From a virus (taxonomy: Duplodnaviria; Heunggongvirae; Uroviricota; Caudoviricetes), in IMG/VR virus record IMGVR_UViG_3300022697_000186, positions 173,091-236,091 of that record: DNA of 63,001 bases, one strand, 5' to 3'. Both the position numbers and the translations under genes were made by a program. Positions 13,591-61,497 of this stretch are shown piece after piece. Below the pieces are notes generated by a model. That model was not told the DNA's origin and searched no databases. It saw nothing but the letters and a program-made list of their open reading frames with translations. Numbering within the stretch: the first letter of the stretch is position 1; every line of letters begins with the position of its first letter.

Positions 13591-13911
13591 TTACAAATTT
13601 GTAGATTTATTAAACCGTTCTTTAACCTTTATTAACTCATTACTAAATTTTTCATTAATTTTTGATATTTCAATCGCTCTTTTTTCAGGATCTAATATTC
13701 TATCTAAAGCTTTTACTGCTTGTCTTTTTCTTTTCATAAGTGAGAGCCTTGCTAGTAAAATTTTTCGTTGTATACTTTGTTGAATAGCTAATCTTTTAGC
13801 AGGATCTTTTATAATTTTAGAAGCTAAATTACTATTAGTTATTTTAGAAATAACATTCTTTATATTTTTTGCTCCTATTTCATTAACATAAACTTCTGAT
13901 ACATATTTCAT
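13591..13911 (-). CDS. Basic helical protein with YVSE leader, lying between two beta' fragments
   Basis: Starts MKYVSEVYVNE; 106 aa, K/R-rich. Confidence 0.7.
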   Translation of the reverse strand: MKYVSEVYVNEIGAKNIKNVISKITNSNLASKIIKDPAKRLAIQQSIQRKILLARLSLMKRKRQAVKALDRILDPEKRAIEISKINEKFSNELIKVKERFNKSTNL

Positions 13912-13916
13912 TATAA

Positions 13917-14834
13917 TTAAACCTCATCAATTAATTCTAAACGTTTACCCAAAAAGTCTTTAACAGCTGTATGAAATTCTTCTGGAATATTTTTGGCATA
14001 TTTACTGTTAACTAAACCATATATTAATTGATTCTCAAATAAACTACTTGCCATATCTAATGGTATTCCAATTTGTCCTAAATCTAAACTTGGGTCTGGA
14101 GATATTACACCTCTAGCAGAAAAATCAACTCTCTTACCAAGAATCATTTTTCTAATCATTCCTTGTTTTTTAGAAATAGTAACTCTAGATAATTCATATA
14201 ATTCTCTAATTAACATTTGCATTCTATATGCAAGTATATTATATAATTCACCAGATACACCTTTCAACTGACTAGAGTGTCTTATTATTTTTTGATATAA
14301 CTCTGTAAGTACATCAGCATCTTCTTCTGAACCATCTAAACCTAATGGTCTATATTCAGGAGATATAATAATTAATTTATCTATAAAAAAGGTACCTTTT
14401 TTTATATTATTATTTATCATTTTTACTAATTCATTTCTGTTACCAGTACCATCTTTACTAAGTCTAAATTTTATTTTATCCATATTTTTAACTAGACTAG
14501 TAAAACCAGATAGTTTTCCATTTTCATCTTCTTCTAAAGTACCATCTTCAGATATTTTAAATGAAGTATCTCCAGCAATTAATTTAACAATTTTTCTTTC
14601 AATTGTTTTGGATATTATATCATATAATGAGGGATGTATTACTGTACTATTTAAATCTACCCATGATAAATTTTGCTTTCTTTCTTTAGAACCATCCATT
14701 CCAAAGATTTCTTCGGAATATAATCCTTGAGGGTGGAATGTTTGGGATTTACCTAAATAGATTTGAGGACTAGTGACGGGTCCTTTTAATTTTCTACTTT
14801 TAATAATCTTGTTAACATTAAAAATTTTTATCAT
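13917..14834 (-). CDS. rpoC: RNAP beta' N-terminal fragment, lacking the Zn-ribbon
   Basis: GLYSEEIFG, IISPEYRP, LYQKII, KQGMIRKMILGKRVDFSARGVISPDP. Confidence 0.92.
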   Translation of the reverse strand: MIKIFNVNKIIKSRKLKGPVTSPQIYLGKSQTFHPQGLYSEEIFGMDGSKERKQNLSWVDLNSTVIHPSLYDIISKTIERKIVKLIAGDTSFKISEDGTLEEDENGKLSGFTSLVKNMDKIKFRLSKDGTGNRNELVKMINNNIKKGTFFIDKLIIISPEYRPLGLDGSEEDADVLTELYQKIIRHSSQLKGVSGELYNILAYRMQMLIRELYELSRVTISKKQGMIRKMILGKRVDFSARGVISPDPSLDLGQIGIPLDMASSLFENQLIYGLVNSKYAKNIPEEFHTAVKDFLGKRLELIDEV

Positions 14835-16657
14835 TTTTCACTCTGAATATAAGAATAATTACCACAGTCCCATATTCTGTCGAAACCATTTAATTGCATA
14901 TTTTGCCATTCAGTTAAAGTTGAATCAAATGTTTGTAGTTTGTCCTTTAATTTATGTTTTTGATATTTCATACGGGATTCTCTACAAACCTGTTTATTTA
15001 AATAAAAGTAATTTGGTTTACTTAATTCTTTATATATAAATCCACATTTCTCATATCCTTTACCTTCTCCATATCTTGCGTCAGCATAAGTGATAATAGA
15101 ACTAGGATTATACTCTTTCTTAAAATGCTTCAAAAGTTTAGATAAACCACCCGTAACTGAATAGTTTAATTTATTACAAAATCTTAAAATTTCATAATCA
15201 TACTTCTTGTTGAATCTAGATTTACCCATGGTAATCATAGATACTAATTCATCTTTATAAAATAAACCAATATGAGTTCCATTGATTTCACATTGTAAAT
15301 GATTATCAAATAGAAATTGTTTAGCTATCTTGTTCTCTACTTCTTTAATTTTACATTTACGTGCGAATATCTTAATGGGAGATTTACCCATTTTATTTAA
15401 AATGATACTCTTAACTATATCCTGTTTATTAAACCACTCATCCTCAAATATCTGTATCAAGTGAATACCTTTAGATTTTGCAAGTAAGGTTTTATTCTGA
15501 TGATATTTAGAATCTTTATTACCACCTATTTCACTATGCCAATAAAGTCCATTGTATTCGATACCTAACTTTAGTTCTTCTATATAAATGTCAATTTCTT
15601 TACCTTCTAAAATTATTCTATCTGATTTAGCATTTGGGTAGTACTTCTGTATAAAAGATAGTACTTCTTGTTCAGATTTTGATGTTCCATTTAATTTAGG
15701 ATAACAAGTTGGACATCTAGGAATTTTACCATTATCTAAATGATCCTCAAATATTATTTTACATTTAGTACATTTCCACGGATATTTATTATGATTAATA
15801 GATCCTATGTAATTTTCTAATTTAAATAAAGGTGTAACTAGATCTTTTAATCTATCTGAATTAAGAAGATTTTCAAAACCACTTAATAAATGAGTTTTCT
15901 TTATTTTTTGTTGTATCTTTTTTGATTGTGATACATTTTCTACACCGTATTTATCTAATAAAGTTTTCTTTATTTTCTTTTGAACTTCTTTAACTTGAAA
16001 AACACTCTCAACACCATATTTTTTTAAATTAGTTTTCTTTATTTTATTCTTAATACTTTCCAATTTTAGAGTAGTACTTACACCATATTTCTTTAAACAA
16101 GTTTGTTTAATTTTTTCTTTCACAATTTTAGAAGAACTTGGATGTTTAGTACCATATTTCTCTAAACTTTTTTTTTCCTTATTTTCTTTGACTATGGGAG
16201 ATTGAGAATAATATTCTACACCATATCTTTCTAAACAGGTTTTTTTCTTTTTATCTTGAAATTCTTTAGATTTAGATGGATTTTCAACACCATATCTATC
16301 TTTACATGTTTGTTTAAATTTCTCTTTAATTATATTATTAGACATTGAACACTTAGTAGAACAAAATAAATGATATCCATAAGATATATTTTTAAAAGTT
16401 ACATTAGAATTACATTCTATACAATTAGGTTTAACAGTTAATCCATTTAATAAAAAATAAATTCTTTCTGCTAATGAACATTTTTCACTTAAACTATTTT
16501 TTGTTTCTTTTATAATTAAATCTGAAATATTATCATCAAAATATTTAAAATTTTTAATCGTATGAAAATATATTTTAGGACCTATAATTTTTGGATCTGT
16601 TGTTTTAAATTTAGATATTAAATAGTTATCAATAATTTCTATTATTGGATTTATCAT
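14831..16657 (-). CDS. Repeat-array endonuclease paralog (6 repeats)
   Basis: Same nuclease and C-terminal module as 10024-12093; ATGA overlaps on both sides. Confidence 0.85.
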   Translation of the reverse strand: MINPIIEIIDNYLISKFKTTDPKIIGPKIYFHTIKNFKYFDDNISDLIIKETKNSLSEKCSLAERIYFLLNGLTVKPNCIECNSNVTFKNISYGYHLFCSTKCSMSNNIIKEKFKQTCKDRYGVENPSKSKEFQDKKKKTCLERYGVEYYSQSPIVKENKEKKSLEKYGTKHPSSSKIVKEKIKQTCLKKYGVSTTLKLESIKNKIKKTNLKKYGVESVFQVKEVQKKIKKTLLDKYGVENVSQSKKIQQKIKKTHLLSGFENLLNSDRLKDLVTPLFKLENYIGSINHNKYPWKCTKCKIIFEDHLDNGKIPRCPTCYPKLNGTSKSEQEVLSFIQKYYPNAKSDRIILEGKEIDIYIEELKLGIEYNGLYWHSEIGGNKDSKYHQNKTLLAKSKGIHLIQIFEDEWFNKQDIVKSIILNKMGKSPIKIFARKCKIKEVENKIAKQFLFDNHLQCEINGTHIGLFYKDELVSMITMGKSRFNKKYDYEILRFCNKLNYSVTGGLSKLLKHFKKEYNPSSIITYADARYGEGKGYEKCGFIYKELSKPNYFYLNKQVCRESRMKYQKHKLKDKLQTFDSTLTEWQNMQLNGFDRIWDCGNYSYIQSEK

Positions 16658-17067
16658 TTAAGTTTAATATTTACCTGTTTTTTAAGAATGTTCATTACTT
16701 CATCACTAACATTATGAGTTCTTGGAACCTTTAATATAGTAACTGGATTTTCAACACTATTCATATAAAATTTAATTTTCTCAATAAACTTTATATACTT
16801 ATCTTCTCCAGTCATTGTATGAAGTCTTTTAGCGTTCATTAAACTCTTTTTAAGTACTGGTATTGAAATGGCATTAGCTGGAGATAGAATAGGAAATATA
16901 GGTACTCCTTTTTTATCTTTAGCTAGAAATGCACCAGGGTTTGATTTATACAATGATGCTCTATTAGTCTTACTTTTAAAGAATTCTAAATCATTTTGTA
17001 GATTATTTTCTTTAAGTATACCTTTTAAATCTTTTAAAATATTTTCCATTAAAATTATATTATCCAT
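16654..17067 (-). CDS. Hypothetical protein
   Basis: 137-aa ORF overlapping both neighbours; N-terminal LME/LKE motifs. Confidence 0.65.
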   Translation of the reverse strand: MDNIILMENILKDLKGILKENNLQNDLEFFKSKTNRASLYKSNPGAFLAKDKKGVPIFPILSPANAISIPVLKKSLMNAKRLHTMTGEDKYIKFIEKIKFYMNSVENPVTILKVPRTHNVSDEVMNILKKQVNIKLK

Positions 17068-17971
17068 ATTCTTCCTCCGTTGCTCCCCATAAACTATCAG
17101 TAATTTTATTACCTACTGATCCTAGCCATTTTACAACTGCTCCAATTTTACCTCTAGAAAGTAAACTTGATAAAGATGAAGAGTTTGTTACATTTTTAAC
17201 TACTTGTTTTATTTTAGGATCTTTATCTACATATCCTAATTCAGACATTCGTTTATTACATTTACCAGAACTAACACCACGACATACTAACAATGATGTT
17301 TCTTTATAAATTTTCTTCATAGCTGACATATAATATTTTTTATATCCCATTTTAATTGCAAATGATTTAGAGTTATAACCATAAACTTTATCTGAATCTG
17401 TTTTAATTATTAAATTTTGACCAAGTTTCGCCATTATATTGTAATAAATTTCTGCTAATGTATCTGATTTAGATTTTAAGAACATATAAATCACAGTTGC
17501 TATAGTAGCACCAATGGCTAAATCTATTGTTTTTTTACTAACCTTTTTTACTAATTGAAATTCACCATATTCATGTAATATAATTGAAATTAATTCATTC
17601 TTATTAAGTAAATCTGCTAATTCTGTAGTATAATATACAGTATTTTGAAAAGCAAATGAGTTAGCAACTCCCTGTTTAGTTAAATGTCTTATTTGTATTT
17701 TAGTATTTCCTATTATTTTTTGAACAATCTCCGTTAAATTATCATCCACCCAACTATTTTTATGAATACTAGCTACTTTCACTAGCAAAGTTGTGCCAAT
17801 ACTGCCAAATATCATTTTAGTAAAATCAAAAATATTACCTAATAGTTTTTTTTGAATACCTTCTTGTAAAGTTGATATACATTCAACTAAATTTACATCA
17901 TTTTCTATTAATAGGTTTATATCATTTTCTAAAATATTATTAATCATGTTCTCAGAAACAAAGGAATTCAT
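17060..17971 (-). CDS. Divergent M48-like zinc metalloprotease homolog with FVSEN leader (HEYGE, second His missing)
   Basis: ANSFAF..VYYTTEL..NELISIILHEYG parallels ORF 31097-31912; likely start at the ATG ending at 17971, after GGAG. Confidence 0.6.
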   Translation of the reverse strand: MNSFVSENMINNILENDINLLIENDVNLVECISTLQEGIQKKLLGNIFDFTKMIFGSIGTTLLVKVASIHKNSWVDDNLTEIVQKIIGNTKIQIRHLTKQGVANSFAFQNTVYYTTELADLLNKNELISIILHEYGEFQLVKKVSKKTIDLAIGATIATVIYMFLKSKSDTLAEIYYNIMAKLGQNLIIKTDSDKVYGYNSKSFAIKMGYKKYYMSAMKKIYKETSLLVCRGVSSGKCNKRMSELGYVDKDPKIKQVVKNVTNSSSLSSLLSRGKIGAVVKWLGSVGNKITDSLWGATEEEYG

Positions 17972-18001
17972 TATAATATCTCCATATAAATACACATTAT
18001 C

Positions 18002-18017
18002 TTTACAGTTTGTCCTT
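18002..18017 (-). promoter_or_regulatory. Candidate phage promoter, class B (AGGACAAAYTRTAAA)
   Basis: Motif recurs intergenically at ~41827-41841 and ~49873-49887. Confidence 0.5.
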
Positions 18018-18039
18018 AATCTAAATAAAAAATTTAGGA

Positions 18040-18800: not shown

Positions 18801-18817
18801 TTATTTTCCTTAAATAA

Positions 18818-19243: not shown

Positions 19244-20275
19244 TTATATATGTTCGTTAATTAAATTTTGGTCCATAGCTGACATTATGGGACAGGTCCA
19301 ATTACATCCTTTACAAAGTGTTTTCTTATCAGCTGCTAATGCTTGTTCAAAATTTAACTTAGAAATTTTATCTGTACCATCTGGATTGAATAAATCAAAC
19401 AATGTAAATTGTGTGGAAAATCTTCCACGTATCCTTAAACACAAGCGGCACGAGTCATCACTATCAATTGTTATATTATGTAAATTACCTTCCCCTAATT
19501 TACAATCCAATTCGGCAGGCATAATATCATAAATTCCATCTAGTAGAATTTTCTTCATATGTATTAAGTAATCACTTTGTTTTAATCTATCAAATAAATC
19601 TCTAACTTCTTGTGTTTTAGGAACTAATAATTTAGGATCTGTTACAGTACTGAAATCATAATAATTCGTCATAGCTATATCAATTACAGTTAGATCAGTA
19701 TAAATTCCTTCTTCAGATAATCGTTTAATTGATTCTTCTACTAAATGTATATTATCTTTACTAACAGTCATTTCAGCTACAGGATCAGTAATTAATCCTT
19801 TATCTTTAAGTTTCTTTAACATATCAAAACCATAATGAGATTTCTTTTGTTCATCATCTGGTTTATCAATATCTAAATAAAAACCAGGATCAACTGAAGC
19901 AGAAAAACCTTTAATAGTACCAACTTCTTTGAATAAGTTTTTATACAATTTATCCATTGTAGGATGACAATTTGTAATCATTGTATAATTAGCATTATTA
20001 GTTTTTAAATGTTTTAATATCATAGCTATATCTGGATGGAGCATACTTTCACCTCCATATACGATTATAAATATATTAGGATTATGTTTTAATAATCTAC
20101 TAATAACATCAACCCAAAAAGACCCTGGTTGTTCATTCTTGTAATAATAATCAGAAGTAGGATATTCTTTAGGCATAGTTACATAGTTAAGATCCCCACT
20201 TATACGGCACATGTCGCATTTGAGGTTACATCTTCTAGTTAAAAGTAAATTAGCTATTTGTATTTTATTATTCAT
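19244..20275 (-). CDS. Radical SAM protein with C-terminal Cys cluster (SPASM/twitch-like)
   Basis: CNLKCDMC (CxxxCxxC), YGGES, C-terminal CRLC and CKGCNWTC. Confidence 0.85.
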   Translation of the reverse strand: MNNKIQIANLLLTRRCNLKCDMCRISGDLNYVTMPKEYPTSDYYYKNEQPGSFWVDVISRLLKHNPNIFIIVYGGESMLHPDIAMILKHLKTNNANYTMITNCHPTMDKLYKNLFKEVGTIKGFSASVDPGFYLDIDKPDDEQKKSHYGFDMLKKLKDKGLITDPVAEMTVSKDNIHLVEESIKRLSEEGIYTDLTVIDIAMTNYYDFSTVTDPKLLVPKTQEVRDLFDRLKQSDYLIHMKKILLDGIYDIMPAELDCKLGEGNLHNITIDSDDSCRLCLRIRGRFSTQFTLFDLFNPDGTDKISKLNFEQALAADKKTLCKGCNWTCPIMSAMDQNLINEHI

Positions 20276-27400: not shown

Positions 27401-27724
27401 TTATTTCCTAATTAAAGTAAATCCCTTATTAATTAACTTACCCTTTTTCATAGCATCCTCTGGTAAGTCTACATATAACCCGCCTTTTTTACTTTGTCCT
27501 AAAACTTTTAGAACTTTGCTAAACTGTTGGATGTTAGTAACTTTAGTTGATGTAGTTGGTTTGTTTTTATCATTTAAAATTAGAACTTTATCTCCTATTT
27601 TAAATTCTCCACTTTCTACAAAACCTAAAGCTATAACTTTACTAAATTCTTTAGACCAGAATAACTTTTCAATTTTGAACTTTGATTCAATTGCTTCTTC
27701 TAAATACTTTTCTGATATATACAT
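27401..27724 (-). CDS. Stand-alone EF-Tu domain II-like beta-barrel protein with YISEKY leader
   Basis: FKIEKLF..VIALGFVESGEFKIGDKVLI..TKVTNIQQFSKVL..GGLYV aligns by eye with EF-Tu IEDVF..VVTGRVERGIIKVGEEVEI..TGVEMFRKLL..VGVLL. Confidence 0.6.
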   Translation of the reverse strand: MYISEKYLEEAIESKFKIEKLFWSKEFSKVIALGFVESGEFKIGDKVLILNDKNKPTTSTKVTNIQQFSKVLKVLGQSKKGGLYVDLPEDAMKKGKLINKGFTLIRK

Positions 27725-31096: not shown

Positions 31097-31912
31097 TTAT
31101 GAAAACATCTTAAGAATTTTTAATTTAATATTTTTAAAATTAATAAGAGAACCTGATAATGCAATTGATTTAACTTTTGATGTTTTTAATATATTTTCAA
31201 TTCTATCTTTTAATTCTGGATGTTCATCATTTTTATAAAGATTAGACATTAATACACTACATTGTTGAGATTTTGGATTAATTGATGAGTCTTCACATAT
31301 TTTTTTTCTAATAAATTCTTCAACTTTTTTTAATGCAGAAATTAATTCACGTCCATAACCCTTTTTAGTGGCAAACGAATCAGAATAATATTCCCATTTT
31401 CTACCTGTTGGTAATTGTTTAGTTTGTTCTGCTCCAATATATCCTAAAAATACTAAAAATTGCAAATATATAACATATAAAAGTGGAACAAATGTAGATA
31501 ATAATGATGTGATTACTGCTAATATAAATCCACTAAATATGGTTGTTTTATTTTTCTGATTTAATTGAGATATATGATTACCATGATGATGACCATATTC
31601 ATGCAGTAATACGGCAACCATTTCTTTTTCATTCAATAATTTAACTAATCCTGTTGTATAATTTAAGGATGGTATTTCTTCAAATACAAATGCATTTGGT
31701 TCTTTGTTAAGAATTTCATATACTTTAACATCATTATCCTTTAAAATATCCTTAAATTTCTTTGTATATTTTTCATTTAATTTTCTTTTAGATATTATAT
31801 TATTTCTTGTCATCTTAGGTAACAATGTAAACATTAATAACATCATTACTGCATTTAATACTGATATAATTACATTTATATTTTCTTTAACATATTTCTC
31901 TGATATATACAT
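31097..31912 (-). CDS. M48/HtpX-like membrane zinc metalloprotease with YISEKY leader
   Basis: EPNAF, AVLLHEYGH, EYYSD, HP...RI; transmembrane segments. Confidence 0.85.
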   Translation of the reverse strand: MYISEKYVKENINVIISVLNAVMMLLMFTLLPKMTRNNIISKRKLNEKYTKKFKDILKDNDVKVYEILNKEPNAFVFEEIPSLNYTTGLVKLLNEKEMVAVLLHEYGHHHGNHISQLNQKNKTTIFSGFILAVITSLLSTFVPLLYVIYLQFLVFLGYIGAEQTKQLPTGRKWEYYSDSFATKKGYGRELISALKKVEEFIRKKICEDSSINPKSQQCSVLMSNLYKNDEHPELKDRIENILKTSKVKSIALSGSLINFKNIKLKILKMFS

Positions 31913-31925: not shown

Positions 31926-32612
31926 TTAATCTTCTTTTGGTGGCATTGTAGATTTATATTGATTAAAAACTTTTTGAGACATTAAACCAGCAACTTTTGC
32001 TAAATCAACATAAAAATATTTTTCAATTGGTTTTGAATTTTTTACTGCATATTCAGCATAACTGCCATCAAAAGTCATTTGATCATATTTTTCAAAAGAA
32101 TCTTCACTTAAAATTTTTTCTACAATATCTATTACACTTACACCATTAATTTCAGTCTCTCTAGCATAAACTCCTTCCCAAAATGATAGTGGTTGATCAT
32201 CACCAGCAAACCGCATAATAATTGGATCACTTATATTTTTAGGAGGTTTAACATACAATCCATATGTGTTTTTTATACCTTTTCCATATAACATTTCTTT
32301 TAAGTGTAAATTTATTGAATCATATAAACCATCATTTAATGTATTCATTACATATTTATCACAAGATTGTTTAGTTAATGCTTTAATCATTACTTCATTA
32401 ACTGCTTTTTTTGAAAATCCCGTCTTTAGTAAAAATTTAGGTATTAATTTACTTTCTATTTTCCAAATTATATCAGAACCTTTTTTAAGGTTTGGTTGAA
32501 GTTTCTTTGTTATTATTTTACTTAATTTTGAAATATATATATATTGTTCTTTATTTAAACCTGTTAATTTTTTATTTATCCAATCTCCTGTTATACCTTC
32601 TGATATATACAT
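31926..32612 (-). CDS. Hypothetical protein with YISE leader
   Basis: Starts MYISEG; 228 aa. Confidence 0.7.
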   Translation of the reverse strand: MYISEGITGDWINKKLTGLNKEQYIYISKLSKIITKKLQPNLKKGSDIIWKIESKLIPKFLLKTGFSKKAVNEVMIKALTKQSCDKYVMNTLNDGLYDSINLHLKEMLYGKGIKNTYGLYVKPPKNISDPIIMRFAGDDQPLSFWEGVYARETEINGVSVIDIVEKILSEDSFEKYDQMTFDGSYAEYAVKNSKPIEKYFYVDLAKVAGLMSQKVFNQYKSTMPPKED

Positions 32613-36755: not shown

Positions 36756-37043
36756 TTACAAGACTGTTCTTCTAACTCTTCGACTCATAAGTTTAGATGC
36801 TTGTTTTCCCTTTGAATATGCAGCTCCAACTGGTGACTTACCTACTTTTTTGATTGATCTATTAAGTAATTTTTTAGCTGATTTAACGGTTCCTAATTTA
36901 GAAATAGGTTTTGTAGCTGCATTAACTCCACCTTTACTTAAAGTACTTCTAGATTTATTTAATACATCGGCACCTTTGCTTAATACTTTCTTTGCTAATT
37001 TTCCAAAAACACTTTCGATATAAATTTCTGATACATATTTCAT
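36756..37043 (-). CDS. Small very basic protein with YVSE leader
   Basis: MKYVSEIYIE followed by a K/R-rich body. Confidence 0.7.
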   Translation of the reverse strand: MKYVSEIYIESVFGKLAKKVLSKGADVLNKSRSTLSKGGVNAATKPISKLGTVKSAKKLLNRSIKKVGKSPVGAAYSKGKQASKLMSRRVRRTVL

Positions 37044-37060: not shown

Positions 37061-37249
37061 TTAACCTAAATTTGGTGTTCTAGCTTTTATTTTTAAAATA
37101 TCTGTCTCGAGTGGTGTTTTACATAATTGATCATTCCCACATGCTTTAATTTTTAATGTTAATTTACTTATAGCATTTTTAGCCATTTTTAAAAAAACAG
37201 GACTAGCCATTTCATTTAAAATATATTTTTCTGATACGTAACTAGCCAT
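37061..37249 (-). CDS. Small protein with YVSEKY leader
   Basis: MASYVSEKYILNE; GGAG upstream of the ATG ending at 37249. Confidence 0.6.
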   Translation of the reverse strand: MASYVSEKYILNEMASPVFLKMAKNAISKLTLKIKACGNDQLCKTPLETDILKIKARTPNLG

Positions 37250-41826: not shown

Positions 41827-41841
41827 TTTATAATTTGTCCT
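41827..41841 (-). promoter_or_regulatory. Candidate phage promoter, class B (AGGACAAATTATAAA)
   Basis: Recurrent intergenic motif. Confidence 0.5.
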
Positions 41842-47422: not shown

Positions 47423-48499
47423 TCAATTAGTTTTATTCTCTGTTTTTTCTGTAGATACTTCTTTATTATTTTTACTAAAATGTATTGCATATCTTAATGA
47501 TCCAGATGCAACAGAAGAAAGAGGATCACCAGCATGTCTAATTTCAGATATATCATAAGGAAAATCTTTTTGTTTATTAAAAACTTCTTTAAATAAATCT
47601 AAAAAACCGTTAGGCATACTTGTTCCCCCACTAACTATTATTGGCAAAGGTTCATCTATATCAAGATTTTCAGATACTTTATTAAAATGACTAGAAACAT
47701 TTTTTAATACATGATTTATCAATGATTCATAATAAAATTTTAAAGCTTGAAGTGTCCTATTTTCTTTTTTATTTCTACCTGCTTTTAAATTATTAAAATC
47801 TAATTTTCTTTCTTTTAAAGATGTAACTCTAGTAATAGCAGATATTCCTGAGGACTTTCCTGCTTCTTTGTCAATCCAGTCTCCTCCGATGTCAATACTA
47901 AATTCAAATATAGGAGCACCTTTCCAACTACATGCTATATTTGTAAGACCACAACCAAAGCTGAAAGCTATTCCTGAATATTTTGTATCTTTACATTCGT
48001 TGTATATAACAGCCATGGATTCATTAATTGGTTTTGGTTCAAAATTTAAAGAAGATAAAATATTATTAAAAACTTGGCTATGATATAATGCTGATGAATT
48101 TTCTCCATCAATTGGATCAGCTGGTATTGAATAAACACATACACCAGGACCTTTTCCAATTAATTTTTTTATCATAAGTGTTAAAATATCAATAGCATCT
48201 ACTTCATTTGGAGAAATTACTCCATTTTGCATAGGACGTTTAATATTTTGTCCAAAAATTGTAGAAAATTTAAAGCAATCTTCACCTATTATATATAAAT
48301 ATTCTACATCTCCATTTTCATCTTTTTGTTCAACATAATCTAAATTTGTTCCAGCTATTTCCATACTATCTACATCAGTTGGATCAATAGGTAAAAACAT
48401 ATTACGCATAACCTTAATATCTGCTTCACCATTATTCCCTTTTGAAGACTTAGCAGACACAATATGCATTGTCCCTAAATCTAATCCTATATATTTCAT
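47423..48499 (-). CDS. Actin-like ATPase (MreB/ParM/MamK superfamily)
   Basis: IGLDLGT, INESMAV, SFGCGLTN, IGGDWID, IIVSGGTS, VASG. Confidence 0.85.
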   Translation of the reverse strand: MKYIGLDLGTMHIVSAKSSKGNNGEADIKVMRNMFLPIDPTDVDSMEIAGTNLDYVEQKDENGDVEYLYIIGEDCFKFSTIFGQNIKRPMQNGVISPNEVDAIDILTLMIKKLIGKGPGVCVYSIPADPIDGENSSALYHSQVFNNILSSLNFEPKPINESMAVIYNECKDTKYSGIAFSFGCGLTNIACSWKGAPIFEFSIDIGGDWIDKEAGKSSGISAITRVTSLKERKLDFNNLKAGRNKKENRTLQALKFYYESLINHVLKNVSSHFNKVSENLDIDEPLPIIVSGGTSMPNGFLDLFKEVFNKQKDFPYDISEIRHAGDPLSSVASGSLRYAIHFSKNNKEVSTEKTENKTN

Positions 48500-49023: not shown

Positions 49024-49845
49024 TTATTTACTAATCCATGCTTGCAGAGGTTTATTCCATTTTGTTATAGCCATATAATTCCATAAACCATGTATAAATA
49101 CACCTATACCATAACCAACTAATGTTGGGTCATTTGTTTTATTATTATATGAAAAATACTTTTGAAAAAATGTTGTAACATAATGCATTAAGACAGCTGC
49201 CCCTCTAACTAAACCAAATTTTAAAATAGCTTTAATAGGTGATCCAAATAATGAAGATAAATATGAGAAAAACTCAACTAAGTTAAATACAAATAAAAAT
49301 GATCCATCTGCTTCATTTTTTATTGCCAAATATTTTCCATATTCTTCAGAGAGAGGAGCAACAACAACAGTTGTAATTATAATTCCAGTTTCAATCCCAA
49401 AAGCTGCCACTGCTAAATTACTTAATAATGAAGATACAAGAATTACTAAAATTAATAAAACTATAGATTCTCCTATTTTAATTTCATTAACCTCCAATAC
49501 TTCTTTAAATATTTGAGAAATTTTAGATAAACCTTCAGTTATATTTTTAGTACCTTCATCTATATCATTACTCTTTATACTTAACTTTAATTTAGAAGAA
49601 GTAGTAGCAACTACTTTTTTAATATCATTACTTAATTTTTTTGTATTAATACCCTTTTTTTCCAAAATTTTTTCAGACTTTTTATGCCAAGCTATATAAT
49701 TCTTATATCTCTTTTTTGTATCCTTACCTATATCTTTAATGGCTGCTTCATTTAAATTAAAATTAGGATCAATTTCACGATAAAATTCTTCAATATCTGC
49801 GAGATTTAATGATTTTGTTATTAATTTCTCACTTATATAATTCAT
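49024..49845 (-). CDS. PrsW/CPBP-type intramembrane protease-like protein with YISEK leader
   Basis: APLSEEYGK, FNLVE, R..AVLMH, IHGLWN; several TM helices; likely start MNYISEKL. Confidence 0.75.
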   Translation of the reverse strand: MNYISEKLITKSLNLADIEEFYREIDPNFNLNEAAIKDIGKDTKKRYKNYIAWHKKSEKILEKKGINTKKLSNDIKKVVATTSSKLKLSIKSNDIDEGTKNITEGLSKISQIFKEVLEVNEIKIGESIVLLILVILVSSLLSNLAVAAFGIETGIIITTVVVAPLSEEYGKYLAIKNEADGSFLFVFNLVEFFSYLSSLFGSPIKAILKFGLVRGAAVLMHYVTTFFQKYFSYNNKTNDPTLVGYGIGVFIHGLWNYMAITKWNKPLQAWISK

Positions 49846-49872: not shown

Positions 49873-49887
49873 TTTATAGTTTGTCCT
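49873..49887 (-). promoter_or_regulatory. Candidate phage promoter, class B (AGGACAAACTATAAA)
   Basis: Recurrent intergenic motif. Confidence 0.5.
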
Positions 49888-49890: not shown

Positions 49891-50397
49891 TTAAATCACT
49901 TCAAACTCAAAATCATAATCTTTTAATAGTTTTTGATACAATTCTAGCATTTTATCTTCAATTTTCTTACGATAATCAAGATCTTTAGAATCTCTAATTC
50001 CATCATCATAAATATAATTGTTTGACTTTATAGTTTTAAATATAATTTTATCATATGTATTCATAAATGACTTAGCTGTTTCTAATTTACGATTAGCTAA
50101 CTCATAATAACCCCCAACATATGTATATGCTATAGAATCAATTATTGATCTATCACAAATTACAATATCATACCACTCACAATATTCAATTTCAAATTTC
50201 ATTTGTTCAGCAAAAATCCATAATTGAGACATTTCAGTTGAATCTTTATTAATAGGTAAAGGACACCTTCTAGCTGTTTCAGCTATAATACCAACAGTTT
50301 TATCAGTATTATCTTTTTTAAATTTAGTAGCTAATTCAAATACTGATGTAGTCTTTCCCGTACCATGTGTGCCAGAGAATGCAATCTTCATGAACAT
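49891..50397 (-). CDS. NadR/AAA_28-like P-loop nucleotide kinase
   Basis: IAFSGTHGTGKTT, ETAR, ICDRSIID. Confidence 0.8.
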   Translation of the reverse strand: MFMKIAFSGTHGTGKTTSVFELATKFKKDNTDKTVGIIAETARRCPLPINKDSTEMSQLWIFAEQMKFEIEYCEWYDIVICDRSIIDSIAYTYVGGYYELANRKLETAKSFMNTYDKIIFKTIKSNNYIYDDGIRDSKDLDYRKKIEDKMLELYQKLLKDYDFEFEVI

Positions 50398-53300: not shown

Positions 53301-54584
53301 TTCAATTACATTACCATTATTTAAAATAAATTTATGATTACCTGTAACCTTAACAAAATTACCATCATCAAAATTTACTTTATATATTTCTTGATTATAT
53401 CCTGTAACTCTAGGATTTCTCATATATCTTATTTTTAATTCTCCATCAGAATTATTACAATAAACCGGTACATCTTTACCATCTAAAACTAAAGTTTTAA
53501 AATCAACTATACCTCTTCCATCTGCTACAGATACTAATGTATCACCTGTAACACAAGGATTTGTCGATTTAATTTCTCCACCTTCAGGACAAGTGTGCCA
53601 TTCATTCATAGCATCACTAAATTGTACACCTGGATCTCCTGTTTGCCAAGCCAATTTTGCTATATCTTTTAATAAGTTATCAGCTGCAAATTGATCACAT
53701 TTTTCACCATTAGTAACATTTTTAGTCCACCACTCTTCTTTAGCTTCCGCTTTATTCATAAACTCATCAGATAATCTTACACTTATATTGGTGTTTTGAT
53801 AAAATACATGATCTGATAAATCTGAATTATTATCAACACCATAAGATTTTAAAATTCTAAGTTTTTCTTCTTCTTTTTTCTTACATGTAATAAATTCTTC
53901 AATGTCTGGGTGATCTATATCAAGACAAACTAATTTAGCAGAACGTCTTAATGTACCACCAGATTTTATTACTCCTGCTGATATGTCTGCAGACTTTAGA
54001 AATGAGACAGGACCACTAGCGTTACCTCCAGCTGATATTTTTTCTTTAGCGCTCCTAATACTACTCATGTTTATACCTGTACCACTACCATTCTTGAAAA
54101 TTAAAGCTTCTGTTTTAGCTACCTCAAAAATAGAATCCATAGTATCTTCTATATCTAAAATAAAACAAGCACTACATTGTGGTTTTTCATGTACTCCCAT
54201 ATTAAAATATACAGGACTATTAAATGCGAAATTCTGATTAATTTGATATAATTTTAATTTGTATACGAAATCATTATATTCTTCTTCTGTTTTAAAATAA
54301 TCTAATCTTTTACCTGCTTCACCAATTCCATCAGATACACGATCAACCATATGTTTTATGGAAGTCTCTTTATGTTTTCCAGAATTTAATAAATATTTAC
54401 TACTAACAATAGATACACTGTTGTCATTAAAAAAATCAGGAAATTCCACATCTTCATCAAATACAGCATTTCCTTTTGAATCAATTATTTGTGATTTTCT
54501 TTTAATAAAATTAATATCATCATATGGATCTTTTCTTTTCACGTTAGTTTTTTCCTTTATATTATTGTCATTTTTATTTGTCAT
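50388..54584 (-). CDS. nrdJ: Class II (adenosylcobalamin-dependent) ribonucleotide reductase with intein and C-terminal TSCPD/Zn-ribbon
   Basis: FNSPVYFN, QCSACFI, GSGTG, GGTLRRSA, TNP|intein|CGE, ACNLASINL, RPLGLG, APTGT, GAISKTIN, KGITVFR. Confidence 0.95.
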   Translation of the reverse strand: MTNKNDNNIKEKTNVKRKDPYDDINFIKRKSQIIDSKGNAVFDEDVEFPDFFNDNSVSIVSSKYLLNSGKHKETSIKHMVDRVSDGIGEAGKRLDYFKTEEEYNDFVYKLKLYQINQNFAFNSPVYFNMGVHEKPQCSACFILDIEDTMDSIFEVAKTEALIFKNGSGTGINMSSIRSAKEKISAGGNASGPVSFLKSADISAGVIKSGGTLRRSAKLVCLDIDHPDIEEFITCKKKEEEKLRILKSYGVDNNSDLSDHVFYQNTNISVRLSDEFMNKAEAKEEWWTKNVTNGEKCDQFAADNLLKDIAKLAWQTGDPGVQFSDAMNEWHTCPEGGEIKSTNPCVTGDTLVSVADGRGIVDFKTLVLDGKDVPVYCNNSDGELKIRYMRNPRVTGYNQEIYKVNFDDGNFVKVTGNHKFILNNGNVIEAKNLKNNDSIKSMTRNIRSLGKKISGNKSGYAWVSSCSYDTSEHRMMYEFYNSIKIKSDEVIHHKDYNSFNNSIENLELMKKKNHDKLHCHNMFGKNNPMVRAQTEWSEEKWKNYKNKMSKSVSADKNGMYLGIDNKEIRNHALNLTKKLGRKFTKKEWKNYTENINIPSFENMGIWRSKQLNGSISGLSKWCALELGFDSFEGITNFILEQYQQALSQGYNTNIKNVHGSNVVLIQKTCEKCNNNLITNYKYREISICGKCSRKEKLKSYKTTDSTKKKISLSSKIWSGTKEGRISKVNAAIISTKNKALICGSEILSIHNYINKNDWNGYKKCLKEKGIKKFIHSNIINKYWNNNWDKFIEDCRNYNHKVVSVELIGKEDVYNGTVDEFHNYYIIGEKSKNNKIRFVNTMNCGEFAFVQDSACNLASINLLRLFSKGKDGNVNFDIKKYKDIINTMVIAQDILVGCSSYPTKRITKNSHDYRPLGLGYSNLGSTLMWLGFPYGNNEGRTVAASLTALLTGYAYNASNKLAERMGSFEKYEENKSHVHRILNKHNDAASLLASGSNYKRITETLLKHVKDCWKNAEFLKPDSKIRNAQVTLLAPTGTTSFLMGCSTTGIEPEFLLVKEKSLAGSGGAIIKIVNDEVKQSLINLGYSENESERYISILKRDGHLENTELIPEHLAIFDTANIPNGGVRCIDYMAHIKMLAAVQPFLSGAISKTINMPENVSVDDVHDVYVTAWKMGLKGITVFREGSKAFSAFKREDTSKKKEELFFDTTDGQRPEMCKTCIPFRKKLPTTRTSINHKFSIAGVEGYLHCGLYNDGKLGEIFVRISKQGSTLSGIFDSFATMISINLQYGVPLKDIVRKLMNQRFEPAGFTGNPDIRTATSIVDYIGKFIGMKFLLESDQIQLGLKSKDNKEPEIVKQLETININSNLDGPACSNCGHIMVKKGSCYWCYNCSQNEGACS
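52062..53555 (-). mobile_element. Intein (498 aa) with HNH endonuclease, inserted at the RNR NPCxE catalytic motif
   Basis: N-terminal CVTGDTLV, block B VTGNHKF, HNH EHR..IHHKD..NNSIENL..H, block F DVYNGTV..HNY, end TMN|C. Confidence 0.92.
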
Positions 54585-56293: not shown

Positions 56294-56296
56294 TAT

Positions 56297-57601: not shown

Positions 57602-57609
57602 AATTTATA

Positions 57610-58020: not shown

Positions 58021-58026
58021 ACTATC

Positions 58027-58593
58027 TTAATATACTTTTCTATTAATTGGTGAATCAAATCCAACTATATTTTTGACTATATTATCACTTGGAATCACAT
58101 TAAATACTTTCTTTAAATTTTTAATATCTTTAAGATCTTTAGGTCTATTTATTGCTTTTTTCCATTCAATTAATCTATTTAAATTTAAAAAATTAACACC
58201 TTTAACATTATTTGCTTCTTCAATTAACTGGGGTACTGGTGCAGTAAATGATCTAAATCCTATTTCTATATCACCATCAAATAATTGACAAACAGGATAA
58301 TTAGTAGGAAACCAAGACTCTTTTGTTGCATTATATAATTTTACTTTATAACCAGCTAATCTAAGAACTTTAAAAAATAAATCTTTAGTAACAGATATAT
58401 CCAAATCATCATTTTGTCTAATTCCATATAATGCTAAAACTCCACTAGATACAATAACACATTTGTTACTTGGTAAACCTAATGATTTTAATTTGTCAAT
58501 ATGTCTTACCTTTTTAATATCAGGTTTCAATCCCTGCCCCTGCACCCTTTGTATTATTTGAAGTTCTTCTAAGTATTGTTGTGATGTATACAT
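58027..58593 (-). CDS. Pol-beta superfamily nucleotidyltransferase-like protein with leader
   Basis: VSSGVLALYGIRQNDDLDI (GS..DxD-like) and C-terminal K..RPKDLKD; leader MYTSQQYLEE. Confidence 0.7.
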   Translation of the reverse strand: MYTSQQYLEELQIIQRVQGQGLKPDIKKVRHIDKLKSLGLPSNKCVIVSSGVLALYGIRQNDDLDISVTKDLFFKVLRLAGYKVKLYNATKESWFPTNYPVCQLFDGDIEIGFRSFTAPVPQLIEEANNVKGVNFLNLNRLIEWKKAINRPKDLKDIKNLKKVFNVIPSDNIVKNIVGFDSPINRKVY

Positions 58594-58595
58594 TA

Positions 58596-59306
58596 TTAAT
58601 GAATATGGATTTGTATTGGTGGAAGTGAATTTTCCGCTAAACGTTCAATAATTCTTTCTCTAAGTTCTCGACCATCAGATTTTAATACGTCACCTTGCAA
58701 AGGAATTGGTCCCCATGGTGTAGAAATTTCACCATAATGGCTTCTCATATTACCTAATAATATTTGAATATCTGCAAGCGCAAGATTCATAAAATCTATT
58801 TTCATTGATGCATGCACTTTTCTGAGATCTTTAGGTTGCTCCCGCTCATATTCAATAGCAATAAATCCTGTATATTTTGGTAATATACGAATTATATTTG
58901 GTTCAAAAAACTTCCAAGTATAATTAAAACTAGAAAGTGGTTTTAATAAGTTTGATTTAAATACATTTAATGCGAATTCTTTTGCATCATTTGCGTTAAA
59001 TGCACCTATAATAGGATGTCCTGTCATGAATTCAGAAGAATTATTAAAATATATATTTTGTATACCTAATATATCTAATTCTTCGGAATCAAAAAAATAA
59101 TAATGATTTGGTTTACTATCTACTTTATACGATAATAATGTAGTATCTGCACCTGTAACAGCTTCATCTGGAAAATATTGTGAATAAGCTGGTATAGTTA
59201 CTAACTTAATATGATCTTTTAACTGTTCATCATTTTTTTCAATAAAAGTTGATGGTAGAGCAAGACTACTTTTAATATAACTCAACACGTTTGCCCATGA
59301 TAACAT
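58596..59306 (-). CDS. Putative neck/head-completion protein (T4 gp13-like)
   Basis: YIKSSL..IE, LALADIQILLGNMRSHY..PLQG..DG.E..E.L pattern recalled for neck proteins. Confidence 0.55.
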   Translation of the reverse strand: MLSWANVLSYIKSSLALPSTFIEKNDEQLKDHIKLVTIPAYSQYFPDEAVTGADTTLLSYKVDSKPNHYYFFDSEELDILGIQNIYFNNSSEFMTGHPIIGAFNANDAKEFALNVFKSNLLKPLSSFNYTWKFFEPNIIRILPKYTGFIAIEYEREQPKDLRKVHASMKIDFMNLALADIQILLGNMRSHYGEISTPWGPIPLQGDVLKSDGRELRERIIERLAENSLPPIQIHIH

Positions 59307-59467
59307 TATATTTCTTCCTCAACTTTCTTAATAAATTTCTTCTTTAATTTCTTCTTTGGTTTTTCTTTTAGTATTTTAGTATCATTGTTTGGAGCCGGAA
59401 ACTCTATTCCTGGTAAACCAAATGATACATTATCCATAACATATTTTTCTGATACACTTTTATTCAT
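59306..59467 (-). CDS. 53-aa ORF with SVSEKY leader and Lys-rich tail (not in ORF track)
   Basis: MNKSVSEKYVMDNVSFGLPG...KKKLKKKFIKKVEEEI; AGGA upstream; TAATG-coupled. Confidence 0.55.
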   Translation of the reverse strand: MNKSVSEKYVMDNVSFGLPGIEFPAPNNDTKILKEKPKKKLKKKFIKKVEEEI

Positions 59468-59486
59468 AATTTAATCCTTAATAATA

Positions 59487-60911
59487 TTACCATTTTTCAT
59501 AACCAATAATAACAGGTACCATTTCTTTCCAATATTCAGTATTCCCTGCTCTTGCATCAACACAAGATTGAAATGCTCTAAAATCAACTTTAACTTTCTT
59601 TGGATCTTTTCTATAATAAGTCATAATATTATTATAAACTTCTCTCTTTAATTCAATAGGAATACTAGGACTAACATATTTCATTAATTTATCAAGTGAT
59701 GTTAAAACTTCTTTTGTATTATAATTTACTTGTAATACAGGTGCTCTACTTGCTAGAGCTAAATCAATTTTACTTCTATCTAAATTTGTAATGATAATTA
59801 ACTGTCCTGTGAATTCAAACTTTTCAGGAGCCTCAGACTCTTCTTGCGTTTCATTATTTTGAGACATCATTTTTTTAAGAGGTAGTGATACAATTCTTCT
59901 ACTATATGTATCAGTAATTGCCTTTAATAAATTTATAACTTCAGGATCACTTAAAGGTGTATCAAAATCATCAAAAATAATTATTTTATCTCTATTTCTA
60001 TACAATATAGAATAAACTGCTTCCAAATCTAAAGCACTACCTTTATGTATACTATAATCTTTACCTGGTCTCATACCTGCAAAATTAAATGTTCTTCTTA
60101 CAGTATATGTTTTTGACATCCCTGGTGGCCCAGATAATATTAATGCGTTTGCTTTTTTATCTATAATTAATTGAATGTGCCTTTTTAATTTATCCATTAA
60201 AGCAAATTCTGGTTCTGATCCAGTTTGTTTTCCAAATAAATCGCTTTGTATTTCCTTTTCTACTACATTTTCAGTATATATTTCAGTTGCATATTTTTTT
60301 GCCTTTTTAATATAATATACAATAAATGCTATAGCAAGTGAAAGATAAAAGATACCCACTACAGTATAATAAACTTTCATAGCTGAAGATTGCATGTTCC
60401 AAAATAATTTAAAGTCTTTATATAAATTTTTAATAAAACCAATTTTTTTAGAATTTTCTTCTTTGATATAGATATTATCTAATTCTAAAAAAGAATTAAA
60501 TATATTATCAATATGGGTAGCATTATCACAATATTGTTCCGATACAAATTTATTTTTAATGAAGGATACACTCTTACCAATTTTAATTATAGACCCTTTA
60601 TTTGCAGCAAAAGATAATGCTAAAAATGTTTTAAATTCTTGATCAGTTATTGTTGGATCAAATTGTAAAAAAATAACAGGTTTTAAATCAGGGGTGTAAA
60701 ATTCTATTCCATATATTTCATTAAATGAAGAATTTTTAGAAGAAAGTCTAATCATTTTTGGAGAACCAGCTGCATAAGTAATAAAATATTTTATTCCATA
60801 TAATTTACCATGAGTTTTTGTTGAAAAAGTATCTATATCTCTGATTTTTCTTATTGATTTAATTCCAAATATTTTCTGTTTATCAAGATTCTTTATATAC
60901 TTACTATCCAT
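59487..60911 (-). CDS. Membrane-anchored AAA-type ATPase
   Basis: TM helix, GPPGMSKT, IIIFDDFD, IIITN, ALASR; internal FVSEQY motif before the TM segment. Confidence 0.75.
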   Translation of the reverse strand: MDSKYIKNLDKQKIFGIKSIRKIRDIDTFSTKTHGKLYGIKYFITYAAGSPKMIRLSSKNSSFNEIYGIEFYTPDLKPVIFLQFDPTITDQEFKTFLALSFAANKGSIIKIGKSVSFIKNKFVSEQYCDNATHIDNIFNSFLELDNIYIKEENSKKIGFIKNLYKDFKLFWNMQSSAMKVYYTVVGIFYLSLAIAFIVYYIKKAKKYATEIYTENVVEKEIQSDLFGKQTGSEPEFALMDKLKRHIQLIIDKKANALILSGPPGMSKTYTVRRTFNFAGMRPGKDYSIHKGSALDLEAVYSILYRNRDKIIIFDDFDTPLSDPEVINLLKAITDTYSRRIVSLPLKKMMSQNNETQEESEAPEKFEFTGQLIIITNLDRSKIDLALASRAPVLQVNYNTKEVLTSLDKLMKYVSPSIPIELKREVYNNIMTYYRKDPKKVKVDFRAFQSCVDARAGNTEYWKEMVPVIIGYEKW

Positions 60912-61038
60912 TTGGTTTATCCTTTTTCTTTTTTTTCTTTACTATCAAAACACGCACAACATCATCAATTGATCTAACTAATTTATTAGTAATTTTTGAT
61001 GTAGTACTATCTTTTATATATTTTTCTGATACATACAT
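60904..61038 (-). CDS. 44-aa ORF with YVSEKY leader (not in ORF track)
   Basis: MYVSEKYIKDSTTSK...VKKKKKKDKPNG; ATG abuts the upstream stop. Confidence 0.55.
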   Translation of the reverse strand: MYVSEKYIKDSTTSKITNKLVRSIDDVVRVLIVKKKKKKDKPNG

Positions 61039-61449
61039 TTAATCATGATCCTTTGTAGCTAAGTAACCAACACTACCTACACCCGCAGCACCAATAACAT
61101 AAGGCGATACTTTATCATACTGTTGTTTTCTTAATGATTTGGATTTCTTAAAATTTATTTTTAATTTGTTTTTTTGTTTCTTAGCTATTTTATAAACTTT
61201 ACTTTGTTCTTTTTCAAAGTTCTTTTTAATAGCTTTAATTTCTCTATCCTTTACTAATTTAATTTTAGGACCACGAAGTTTATTATATTTTTGTTTTACT
61301 CTTTTTAGAGCATCATCTCTTAACTTTCTTAAATTAGTAACTATTTTTTTATTTTGAGCAGAAATTATACTAAATTCTTTCTTTTGTAATTTAGAAATAG
61401 GTGTTAATCTATTTATTATTTTTTTAATATAATTTTCTGTTATATTCAT
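61039..61449 (-). CDS. Very basic protein with ITENY leader and Gly/Ala-rich hydrophobic tail
   Basis: MNITENYIKK; tail VIGAAGVGSVGYLATK. Confidence 0.7.
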   Translation of the reverse strand: MNITENYIKKIINRLTPISKLQKKEFSIISAQNKKIVTNLRKLRDDALKRVKQKYNKLRGPKIKLVKDREIKAIKKNFEKEQSKVYKIAKKQKNKLKINFKKSKSLRKQQYDKVSPYVIGAAGVGSVGYLATKDHD

Positions 61450-61452
61450 ATA

Positions 61453-61497
61453 TCATCCTTTAAGATTTTCCTCTAAATAATTTTCTGATACATACAT
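61453..61497 (-). CDS. 14-codon mini-ORF consisting almost only of the leader (MYVSENYLEENLKG)
   Basis: Read directly from sequence; fills the gap between two ORFs. Confidence 0.4.
   Translation of the reverse strand: MYVSENYLEENLKG

Follow-up and report, generated by a model that had tools for sequence, protein, structure and literature searches.

The first ten residues of the bacteriophage T4 internal protein IPIII (MKTYQEFIAE) suffice for packaging; targeting by this capsid-targeting sequence (CTS) depends mainly on Tyr4 and Phe7 and processing on Ile8 and Glu10, and Asp at position 10 blocks cleavage while targeting is kept (PMC9026906). The internal proteins of T-even phages form a highly diverse set in which only the CTS is conserved (PMC3012670), and those of T4 are highly basic (PMC8442874). 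A leader of comparable kind, M-x(0-3)-[YF]-[IV]-S-E-x-[YF]-[ILV](-x-E), is described here on about 15 otherwise unrelated proteins of an uncultured phage, whose genes lie largely in a window of 63 kb (63,001 nucleotides; positions 173,091 to 236,091 of IMG/VR record IMGVR_UViG_3300022697_000186). The window, by which this whole stretch is meant, is the 3' terminal part of one 236,091-bp viral contig (GC 27%; estimated completeness 69%). With slightly better than even confidence, the leader is interpreted as a docking peptide of the T4 CTS type, which would draw unrelated proteins, most of them basic, into the scaffold core of the prohead.

The resemblance to T4 lies in a short N-terminal peptide carried by otherwise unrelated, mostly small and basic proteins, and in a capsid protein of the gp23 type in the source phage together with a protease of the gp21 type in its relatives. 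The order of the leader residues (Tyr, acidic, Tyr/Phe, Leu/Ile/Val, x, Glu) is that of Tyr4, Phe7, Ile8 and Glu10 in the CTS, and one leader of a relative, MTYISQEYIAE, is close to MKTYQEFIAE, a peptide too short for a statistical test of homology. As in the T-even internal-protein loci, related phages keep the tag but have hypervariable cargos (PMC3012670, PMC9026906). The two systems differ in that the only universal Glu of the leader lies inside the tag ([IV]-S-E) and not at its end, in that about 15 genes are tagged per genome as against 3 or 4 in T4, and in that enzymes and membrane proteins are found among the cargos (M48 peptidases, a PrsW-like protein and InPase). Furthermore, the tagged genes are scattered, some of them inside an RNA polymerase (RNAP) operon, and the system, known from sequence alone, belongs to an uncultured clade whose nearest annotated major capsid proteins (MCPs), those of the jumbo phages AR9/PBS1 and phiR1-37 and of Staphylococcus S6-like phages, are only 23-25% identical.

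The jumbo phages phiKZ, 201phi2-1 and SPN3US also possess two multisubunit RNA polymerases and a T4-like protease cutting after Glu, and they pack many proteins in the head and eject them; in SPN3US, gp53 and gp54 have an identical 15-residue N-terminus (PMC5694885). Most of their propeptides, however, are long (from 20 to over 100 residues); unrelated proteins do not carry them as a shared tag, and the cleavage sites have a small P3 residue, whereas the present leader is about 8 residues long with a hydrophobic P3 and a Ser P2. The polyvalent proteins described by Iyer, Burroughs, Anand, de Souza and Aravind (2017) resemble the tagged proteins in their InPase and zincin-type metallopeptidase domains and in their predicted delivery with the DNA, but they join many effector domains in one giant polypeptide, whereas here separate small proteins carry leaders of their own.

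Occurrence of the leader and selection on its residues

Relatives of the source phage (G000) were found by a scan with its MCP, and these genomes (G001-G006) display MCP identities of 52-71%. They represent four independent lineages besides the source phage, namely G001; G002 and G005, which are the same phage (99.96% over 118 kb); G003 and G006 (L009), which are 99.6% identical, so that G006 is not an independent lineage; and G004. Synteny with the window is seen in G001, G003 and G005, where the core genes show 40-59% identity. The source genome contains two multisubunit RNAP gene sets, as do AR9/PBS1, phiR1-37 and the S6-like phages.

The leader core [YF][IV]SE has 29 six-frame matches in the 236,091-bp genome, of which 12 lie within four residues of an ATG, and a loose pattern of seven residues has 15 matches, 13 of them immediately after an ATG. 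Against the 0.15 N-terminal matches expected from the interior frequency in called proteins, the 12 observed correspond to a Poisson p of 2.8e-19; the genome-wide motif search with enrichment statistics that an earlier note on this DNA had called for thus bears out the N-terminal excess. The reversed motif, used as a control, gave no N-terminal and 6 interior matches. An unbiased count of N-terminal 4-mers ranked SEKY, YVSE and YISE at the top, and most of the leader-adjacent ATGs are equipped with a Shine-Dalgarno sequence. All 13 starts listed in the earlier note are present on the minus strand, on which essentially all real genes of the window lie; the start at 61497 proved to be a leader-only mini-ORF of 14 codons and that at 32612 to carry half a leader (MYISEG). 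A further start, 61449 (MNITENYI), is a weak match in itself, although its ortholog in G003 has a canonical leader. Two extra copies occur outside the window at genome positions 102148(+) and 39592(-).

A residue logo was built on 37 leaders from the source phage and its relatives. The first column is occupied by Tyr (28) or Phe (7), the second by Ile (20) or Val (16), the third by Ser in 37 of 37 leaders and the fourth by Glu (34) or Gln (3); the fifth is polar, the sixth is Tyr (22) or Phe (11) and the seventh Ile (21), Leu (8) or Val (5). Only [IV]-S-E is universal (34/37, with Gln in place of Glu in the other three). A second Glu in the ninth column ([LIVM]-x-E) is found in 13/27 leaders of lineages A and B and in 0/8 of lineage C, and two leaders of the window terminate in Asp (YIKD and YVMD). 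Cleavage after the Glu of a ten-residue leader, as the earlier note proposed, is therefore not general, the residue being present in about half of the leaders of two lineages and absent from the third. The leader is acidic and polar (Y-I-S-E-K-Y-L-E-E), has no hydrophobic core and does not display the features of a Sec, Tat or lipoprotein signal peptide.

Selection on the leader acts at the peptide level, as evident from the invariant Ser, for which five codons, drawn from both boxes, are used over 36 leaders (TCA 18, TCT 9, AGT 6, TCG 2 and TCC 1). The inference of protein-level selection drawn earlier from a predominance of TCA with some TCT and AGT was correct and is extended here to this larger set. 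Conservation at the level of DNA or RNA, for instance of a translation-initiation enhancer or of a promoter element overlapping the start codon, would fit the AT-rich leader codons and the somewhat over-used Ser codon TCA (18/36 as against about 30% genome-wide). The leader Glu and Tyr codons, however, match genome-wide usage, third positions vary at every conserved residue, and the distance from Met to the core shifts by 0-3 codons. The exact back-translated DNA pattern, searched across IMG/VR, gave one chance match with no ORF and no real copy elsewhere. Codon usage thus argues strongly against an element of this kind, which we regard as the least probable of the explanations considered here.

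Cargo proteins and their turnover in sister phages

With the leader taken off, no cargos are related to each other except the two M48 peptidases (28% identity); the earlier description of the cargos as unrelated accordingly holds, with the reservation that these two are paralogs. They are encoded at 17060..17971 (303 aa, MNSFVSENMI..., directly after a late-promoter word) and at 31097..31912 (271 aa, MYISEKYVKE..., E = 7.5e-15, with a transmembrane (TM)-like segment immediately after the leader), and for both of them the M48 label was confirmed by Pfam. Like all tagged genes of the window they are on the minus strand. The gene at 31926..32612 (228 aa, MYISEG..., with the first half of the leader only) adjoins the second of them, and the ribosome-binding site and first five codons of the two genes are nearly identical at the DNA level.

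Other labels given earlier from the letters did not reach the same standard. The 273-aa multi-TM product of 49024..49845 (MNYISEKLI..., directly after a late-promoter word) matches the PrsW profile with 22.5 bits, under the Pfam cut-off of 23.5, and the 107-aa product of 27401..27724 (MYISEKYLEE...) matches EF-Tu domain 2 with 26.7 bits, under the cut-off of 30.3. A homolog of the former in G002 also bears the leader. The supposed nucleotidyltransferase at 58027..58593 (188 aa, MYTSQQYLEE...) found no confirmation by profile or PDB search, only a G[SG]...DxD signature being visible, and the supposed AAA ATPase at 59487-60911 had no Pfam or NCBIfam match and no confirmation from a PDB search. 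Homologs of the 58593 cargo outside the clade begin without a leader, which indicates that the leader is an add-on to a pre-existing domain.

Many of the cargos are small and Lys-rich. The 106-aa product of 13591..13911 (MKYVSEVYVNE...), encoded between two split RNAP beta-prime fragments, is rich in Lys and Arg with a net charge of +16 without the leader. The gene at 36756..37043 (95 aa, MKYVSEIYIE...) encodes an extremely basic protein (24 K+R, 3 D+E), the composition of which resembles that of two tagged head-operon proteins of G003, and is accompanied by 37061..37249 (62 aa, MASYVSEKYILNE...). Lys-rich tails follow the leader in the products of 59306..59467 (53 aa, MNKSVSEKYVMD...) and 60904..61038 (44 aa, MYVSEKYIKD...). 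A degenerate leader is found on the gene at 61039..61449 (136 aa, MNITENYIKK..., 39 K+R), whose ortholog G003_13926 begins with the canonical MYVSEQFINN. The leader-only mini-ORF MYVSENYLEENLKG with its stop (61453..61497) is in frame with the latter gene, a single TGA and one codon lying between them, an arrangement which could be a nonsense lesion with re-initiation, a case of readthrough or a tandem duplication of the leader.

The charge of the cargos was computed after removing the first 12 residues, with the other proteins of the same genome as background. All 13 cargos of the source phage are net-positive, as compared to 53% of its other proteins (Mann-Whitney p = 1.2e-5), and the same holds for 8/8 cargos in G003 (p = 8e-5), 7/7 in G002 and 7/8 in G005. 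The tagged cargos of the relatives include an InPase domain (PF18823, E = 2e-47) and a protein with a weak C92 amidase match. Domains of the InPase and zincin peptidase types are characteristic of phage proteins for which delivery along with the DNA has been predicted (PMC5512222). A tblastn search with a tagged M48 protein against 50,697 phage records returned no match, and a 'zincin protease' adjacent to the MCP in AR9, considered as kin of the tagged M48 proteins, was set aside for want of significant similarity (E = 0.12). For the tagged proteins and for ten proteins of the head and tail modules, PHROGs annotation yielded almost nothing because the clade is too remote.

The leader is kept in two sister lineages, G002/G005 and G003, whose MCPs are 64-69% identical, and its N-terminal enrichment on the three contigs has p values of 1e-9 to 1e-13. 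In G004 (38% complete) no tagged gene was found, only one leader-like ORF of 20 aa. Head-module DNA of about 75 more distant S77-protease phages, 748 kb in all, does not contain the leader, the G003/G006 pair excepted. The tagged genes are mostly without an ortholog in the sister phages and sit in variable slots between syntenic genes. The slot in the RNAP beta-prime gene illustrates this, since each lineage has a different leader-type gene there: one of 106 aa in the source phage, 194 aa in G001, 146 aa in G003 and two of 226 and 121 aa in G005. In the window, this slot is flanked upstream by the N-terminal beta-prime fragment at 13917..14834 (-; Rpb1 domain 2, positions 1-47) and downstream by the middle fragment at 12094..13578 (-; Rpb1 domain 2, positions 92-164, with domains 3 and 5). 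Peptide-level selection, unrelated cargos, leaderless homologs of one cargo and a tag that is kept while the cargos turn over all uphold the description of the leader as a portable tag.

A further relation emerged from the loci at G002 36173 (-), G003 53000 (+) and G001 37045 (-). The C-terminal ~100 residues of one tagged cargo family are common to the C-terminus of a conserved late protein (428 aa in G002 and 345 aa in G001), which starts with MSFEL... and is encoded after a late promoter; a 508-aa protein of the source phage (genome 89116-90642, +) has the same start.

Several arrangements in the relatives suggest that cargo cassettes are exchanged at the leader codons. In G005, five leader-bearing ORFs stand in tandem just upstream of the RNAP beta gene (133842-136328, +; L069), a 45-nt leader segment (134947 and 135606, with one mismatch) occurs on both sides of the 175-aa gene at 135076, and the ORF at 135606 begins with two consecutive leaders (MYISKQFINEKCSST-I-MFLSEQYLTE); this array looks like the product of cassette insertion by recombination at leader codons. 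In G002, directly after the late-promoter word, the reading frame at 133856-134290 (+; L085) begins with M-F-I-S-E-TAG-F-L-N-E and continues in frame into an ORF of 137 aa. The stop occupies exactly the variable fifth leader position, and it makes this the second leader severed from its cargo by a single stop; no suppressor tRNA for the in-frame stops after the two leaders was found among the 18 tRNAs of the source genome. The SNF2 helicase ortholog of G005 (130646, +) has an in-frame leader-like extension (MYTYLSEEYIEEFT) before the Met that aligns to the start in the source phage, where a tagged M48 peptidase gene is located just upstream of the SNF2 helicase (window 29116-31083, -), and the extension may be the leader remnant of a deleted cargo. 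A suspected common locus with different tagged genes in G002 and in G005 was dropped, as the coordinates are not colinear.

Leader-only remnants, tandem leaders, the 45-nt flanking repeat and leaders severed by single stops together suggest that the leader-coding DNA doubles, as it seems, as a short homology patch for the exchange of cargo cassettes. It might be argued from the same observations that the leader is mainly a footprint of this recombination, that is, a conserved 5' coding patch for gene swaps, the peptide having little or no function. The mini-ORF at 61497 in frame with the 61449 gene, the repeat and the double leader in G005, the ribosome-binding site and first codons shared at the DNA level by 32612 and 31912, and the variable slots between syntenic genes would all be expected on this account. 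Against it, synonymous codons vary freely while the residues are fixed, Ser being encoded by both TCN and AGY, the peptide is kept across lineages of 27-35% GC with MCPs only 64-69% identical, and recombination alone would not make all the cargos basic. A footprint of this sort is therefore judged improbable as the whole explanation. The process itself is real and compatible with a functional tag, for T-even internal-protein loci likewise combine a conserved CTS with diverse cargos (PMC3012670).

Head genes, probable late promoter and proposed destination of the tagged proteins

The MCP of the source phage (genome 82646-84097, +; locus L001, 1261-2709) belongs to the T4 gp23 family (PF07068, E = 1.6e-34). 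A Peptidase_S77 protease of the T4 gp21 type and a portal of the T4 type are encoded by all five relatives, both above the Pfam cut-off; the protease alignment has an invariant His, Ser and His within conserved motifs. The protease of the source phage can be postulated from its presence in these relatives, and this gene and the portal gene presumably lie in the missing third of the genome. Thus the identification of the prohead protease, which the earlier note had suggested as a check, succeeded in the relatives, while none was found on the source contig. A portal candidate in the window (50388-54584, -) was rejected, as the match was to an intein/HNH insert of ribonucleotide reductase that is common to the large portals of G002 and G003; the gene itself encodes a class II-like ribonucleotide reductase of 1398 aa, split by an intein with an HNH endonuclease.

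Proteases of the gp21 family cut after Glu, at L/I-X-E in T4 and S/A-X-E in phiKZ (PMC9026906), and the motif of the gp21-like protease of SPN3US is A-X-E (PMC5694885). When the MCPs are aligned, the T4 gp23 maturation site F-L-T-E|A-E-I-G falls on a conserved L-[S/A/N]-E|[G/S]-L of the clade; the predicted site of the source phage is L-S-E, after Glu45, and the leader core [I/V]-S-E has the same form. By its motif, 34/37 leaders would accordingly contain a candidate gp21-type cleavage site (hydrophobic-X-Glu). The N-terminus of the MCP itself (MKHLLQEAY), kept in all six genomes, fits a relaxed leader pattern of two hydrophobics, x, Glu, x and Tyr/Phe within four residues of Met1, for which the chance rate is about 0.002 per protein. 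The MCP is the sole untagged protein with such an N-terminal match in all six genomes, G001 and G004 included.

The gene order in the head operon of G003 is portal, an acidic protein of 153 aa, two tagged proteins of 82 aa (net +19) and 75 aa (net +14), and the protease, which is located at 266637-267332. In T4 the counterpart reads portal, gp67 (with an acidic tail), gp68 (with a very basic C-terminal half) and protease gp21, so that the tagged pair of G003 occupies the position of T4 genes 67 and 68 and is of similar composition. Candidate core proteins are two conserved products of 93 and 131 aa encoded upstream of the MCP, an acidic one of 150 aa next to the protease, and the protease itself.

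A conserved word (TTTAGGACAAACTATAAAT) is present in about 18 genome copies, 10-90 nt upstream of head, tail and RNAP-operon genes, among them copies outside the window at genome 81799, 82181, 89039, 113161 and 115767. With its gACA-N5-TA it resembles the late-promoter consensus of AR9, AACA-N6-T(A/G) (PMC7598289), and is probably a late promoter. In G000, G001 and G002/G005, the word GGACAAACTATAAA precedes the scaffold-like gene before the MCP and the acidic head gene, and also sheath, tape-measure-like and baseplate-like genes; it is sparser in G003, with few copies before recognisable structural genes. Three tagged genes directly follow the word: 17971, with GGACAAACTGTAAA at 18002..18015 (-), 30 nt upstream of the start; 49845, with GGACAAACTATAAA at 49873..49886 (-), 27 nt upstream; and genome 39592. 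The copy at 18002..18015 heads the split-RNAP operon that holds both 17971 and 13911, and the same operon is preceded by the word in G001 and G005. The tagged gene at genome 102148 lies within the tail gene cluster. Another copy of the word in the window (41827..41840, -) stands before a conserved 172-aa protein (41236-41754, -) that follows the late-promoter word in four lineages, has sub-threshold matches to linker histone H1/H5 and to the C-terminal part of peptidase A24, and heads the block with the tagged genes 37249 and 37043.

The RNAP set of the window (4462-17067, -) has its beta-prime gene in at least 3 fragments, the gaps holding endonuclease genes, an intein and a leader gene, while a second set (genome 144150 / 146877, -) is unsplit and about 28% identical to it. 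AR9 and phiKZ carry one of their two sets in the virion and inject it, the other being the product of early genes (PMC7598289). By this analogy and from its late-promoter word, the set in the window probably represents the virion RNAP.

Taken with these contexts, the preferred interpretation can be put as a sequence of steps, in which docking, cleavage, packaging and ejection are what we infer. The tagged genes would be expressed with the late genes, and the leader would bind the core or scaffold partner of the N-terminal tip of the MCP propeptide, which it resembles. After the shell has closed around the core, the gp21-type (S77) prohead protease would cut behind the invariant Glu of [IV]-S-E; the second [LIV]-x-E, five residues on, might be an additional or alternative site in many leaders of two lineages. 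The mature basic proteins would then remain with the DNA and exit the head with it at infection. The claim of capsid loading made in the earlier note is consistent with the head genes, the likeness to the MCP site, the head-operon and late contexts and the basic cargos; its support is of this contextual kind.

Several observations weigh against loading into the capsid. The leader sequence differs from the T4 CTS, with its aromatics five positions apart as against three in T4. Neither the S77 protease nor the T4 portal turned up when the source contig (69% complete) was searched for them; the same holds for an S78 protease and an HK97 capsid protein, and a query with the second exon of the AR9 protease gave no match either. 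Only 3/14 tagged genes stand directly after the late-promoter word, those outside this group, the RNAP operon and the tail gene cluster having no assignable promoter, and most are situated among genes of replication and nucleotide metabolism. The likeness of the MCP N-terminus to the leader was found post hoc, so that its chance rate is merely indicative. In G001, whose MCP is the most similar among the relatives (71%), there are no more than three leaders, all degenerate (MHLSEEYY, MISKKYI and MSISQEFL), which shows that the leader system can decay. The second Glu is unconserved, and a cut after [IV]-S-E would take off only 5-8 residues. Some cargos are multi-TM membrane proteins; a first objection to TM-bearing cargos is removed by the packaged ejection protein gp47 of SPN3US, in which a TM helix immediately follows the cleaved propeptide (PMC5694885). 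Lastly, Ser is invariant in 37/37 leaders beyond the need of a protease P2 under the T4 rule L/I-X-E, and it may have another role.

The invariant Ser has also to be considered in connection with the radical-SAM enzyme encoded in the window (19244-20275), for which the leader could be a recognition or modification handle. The enzyme gene is conserved in G001, G003 and G005, and the tagged gene 17971 is about 1.3 kb downstream of it. Only about 2/15 tagged genes, however, lie within eight genes of the enzyme, the others lying at distances of up to 150 kb; a SPASM domain was not found in the enzyme, its Radical_SAM match is marginal (30.6 bits, cut-off 29.5), and G001 retains it (55% identity) yet has almost no leaders. 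Such a role is very improbable. A degron or regulatory handle, through which a host or phage protease or adaptor would set the lifetime or activation of the tagged proteins, accords with a short N-terminal motif with an invariant Ser-Glu and with several cargos that are themselves proteases and may need latency. It has little probability, though rather more than the enzyme handle: no adaptor or partner was identified, and the head-operon location, the late-promoter contexts and the charge bias are not what it predicts.

A more serious competitor, unlikely as it is, is that the tag sorts or docks the proteins elsewhere than in the capsid interior, for instance at the cell membrane, on a chaperone, on the virion RNA polymerase, or in the replication compartment or nucleoid. 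What speaks for a portable tag selected as protein applies equally to it, and the positive charge of the cargos also suits association with nucleic acid or membrane. The location of two tagged genes within the RNAP operon, the TM segment right after the leader in two cargos and the position of most tagged genes among replication genes speak in its favour as well. It leaves unexplained, however, the tagged pair between portal and protease in G003 and the likeness between leader core and MCP maturation site and between leader and MCP N-terminus, and the leader, acidic and with no hydrophobic core, is without the features of a secretion signal.

Within the T4-like interpretation, a more specific and decidedly tentative proposal concerns how the cargos are recognised. 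The tag may mimic the extreme N-terminus of the MCP propeptide (M-K-H-L-L-Q-E-A-Y as against M-K-Y-V-S-E-x-Y) and use the MCP docking site on the scaffold core, thereby loading at least 15 separate, fast-evolving proteins, among them membrane-inserting metallopeptidases and InPase, the cargos being recruited by recombination at the leader codons. We hold it possible, with appreciably less confidence than docking as such.

Among the other products of the window are a ribonucleotide reductase with the intein/HNH insert mentioned above, RNAP beta, the fragmented beta-prime, and RecA-like, volactin-like, SNF2-helicase, PDDEXK nuclease, amidase and radical-SAM proteins. An endonuclease of 550-690 aa is present in many copies. 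The volactin-like product (47423-48499, -) is an actin-fold protein with a strong match to Pfam Volactin (E = 2.4e-63) and is kept in G001, G003 and G004.

Meaning for the biology of the clade

The clade combines a T4-type head with dual RNA polymerases of the AR9/phiKZ type. The capsid-targeting principle itself is already known from T4; the likeness of the leader to the tip of the MCP propeptide and to the MCP maturation site offers, in addition, a hypothesis of how cargo is recognised. If the T4-like interpretation is true, that principle, which in T-even phages covers 3-4 proteins, would be extended to a larger and enzymatically diverse set of cargos. The proteins that uncultured AR9-like/T4-like jumbo phages deliver to their hosts could then be read from sequence with no culturing, and the list would include metallopeptidases, a PrsW-like membrane protein, an EF-Tu-domain-like protein, InPase and many small basic proteins. 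The tag would also be usable as a packaging handle.

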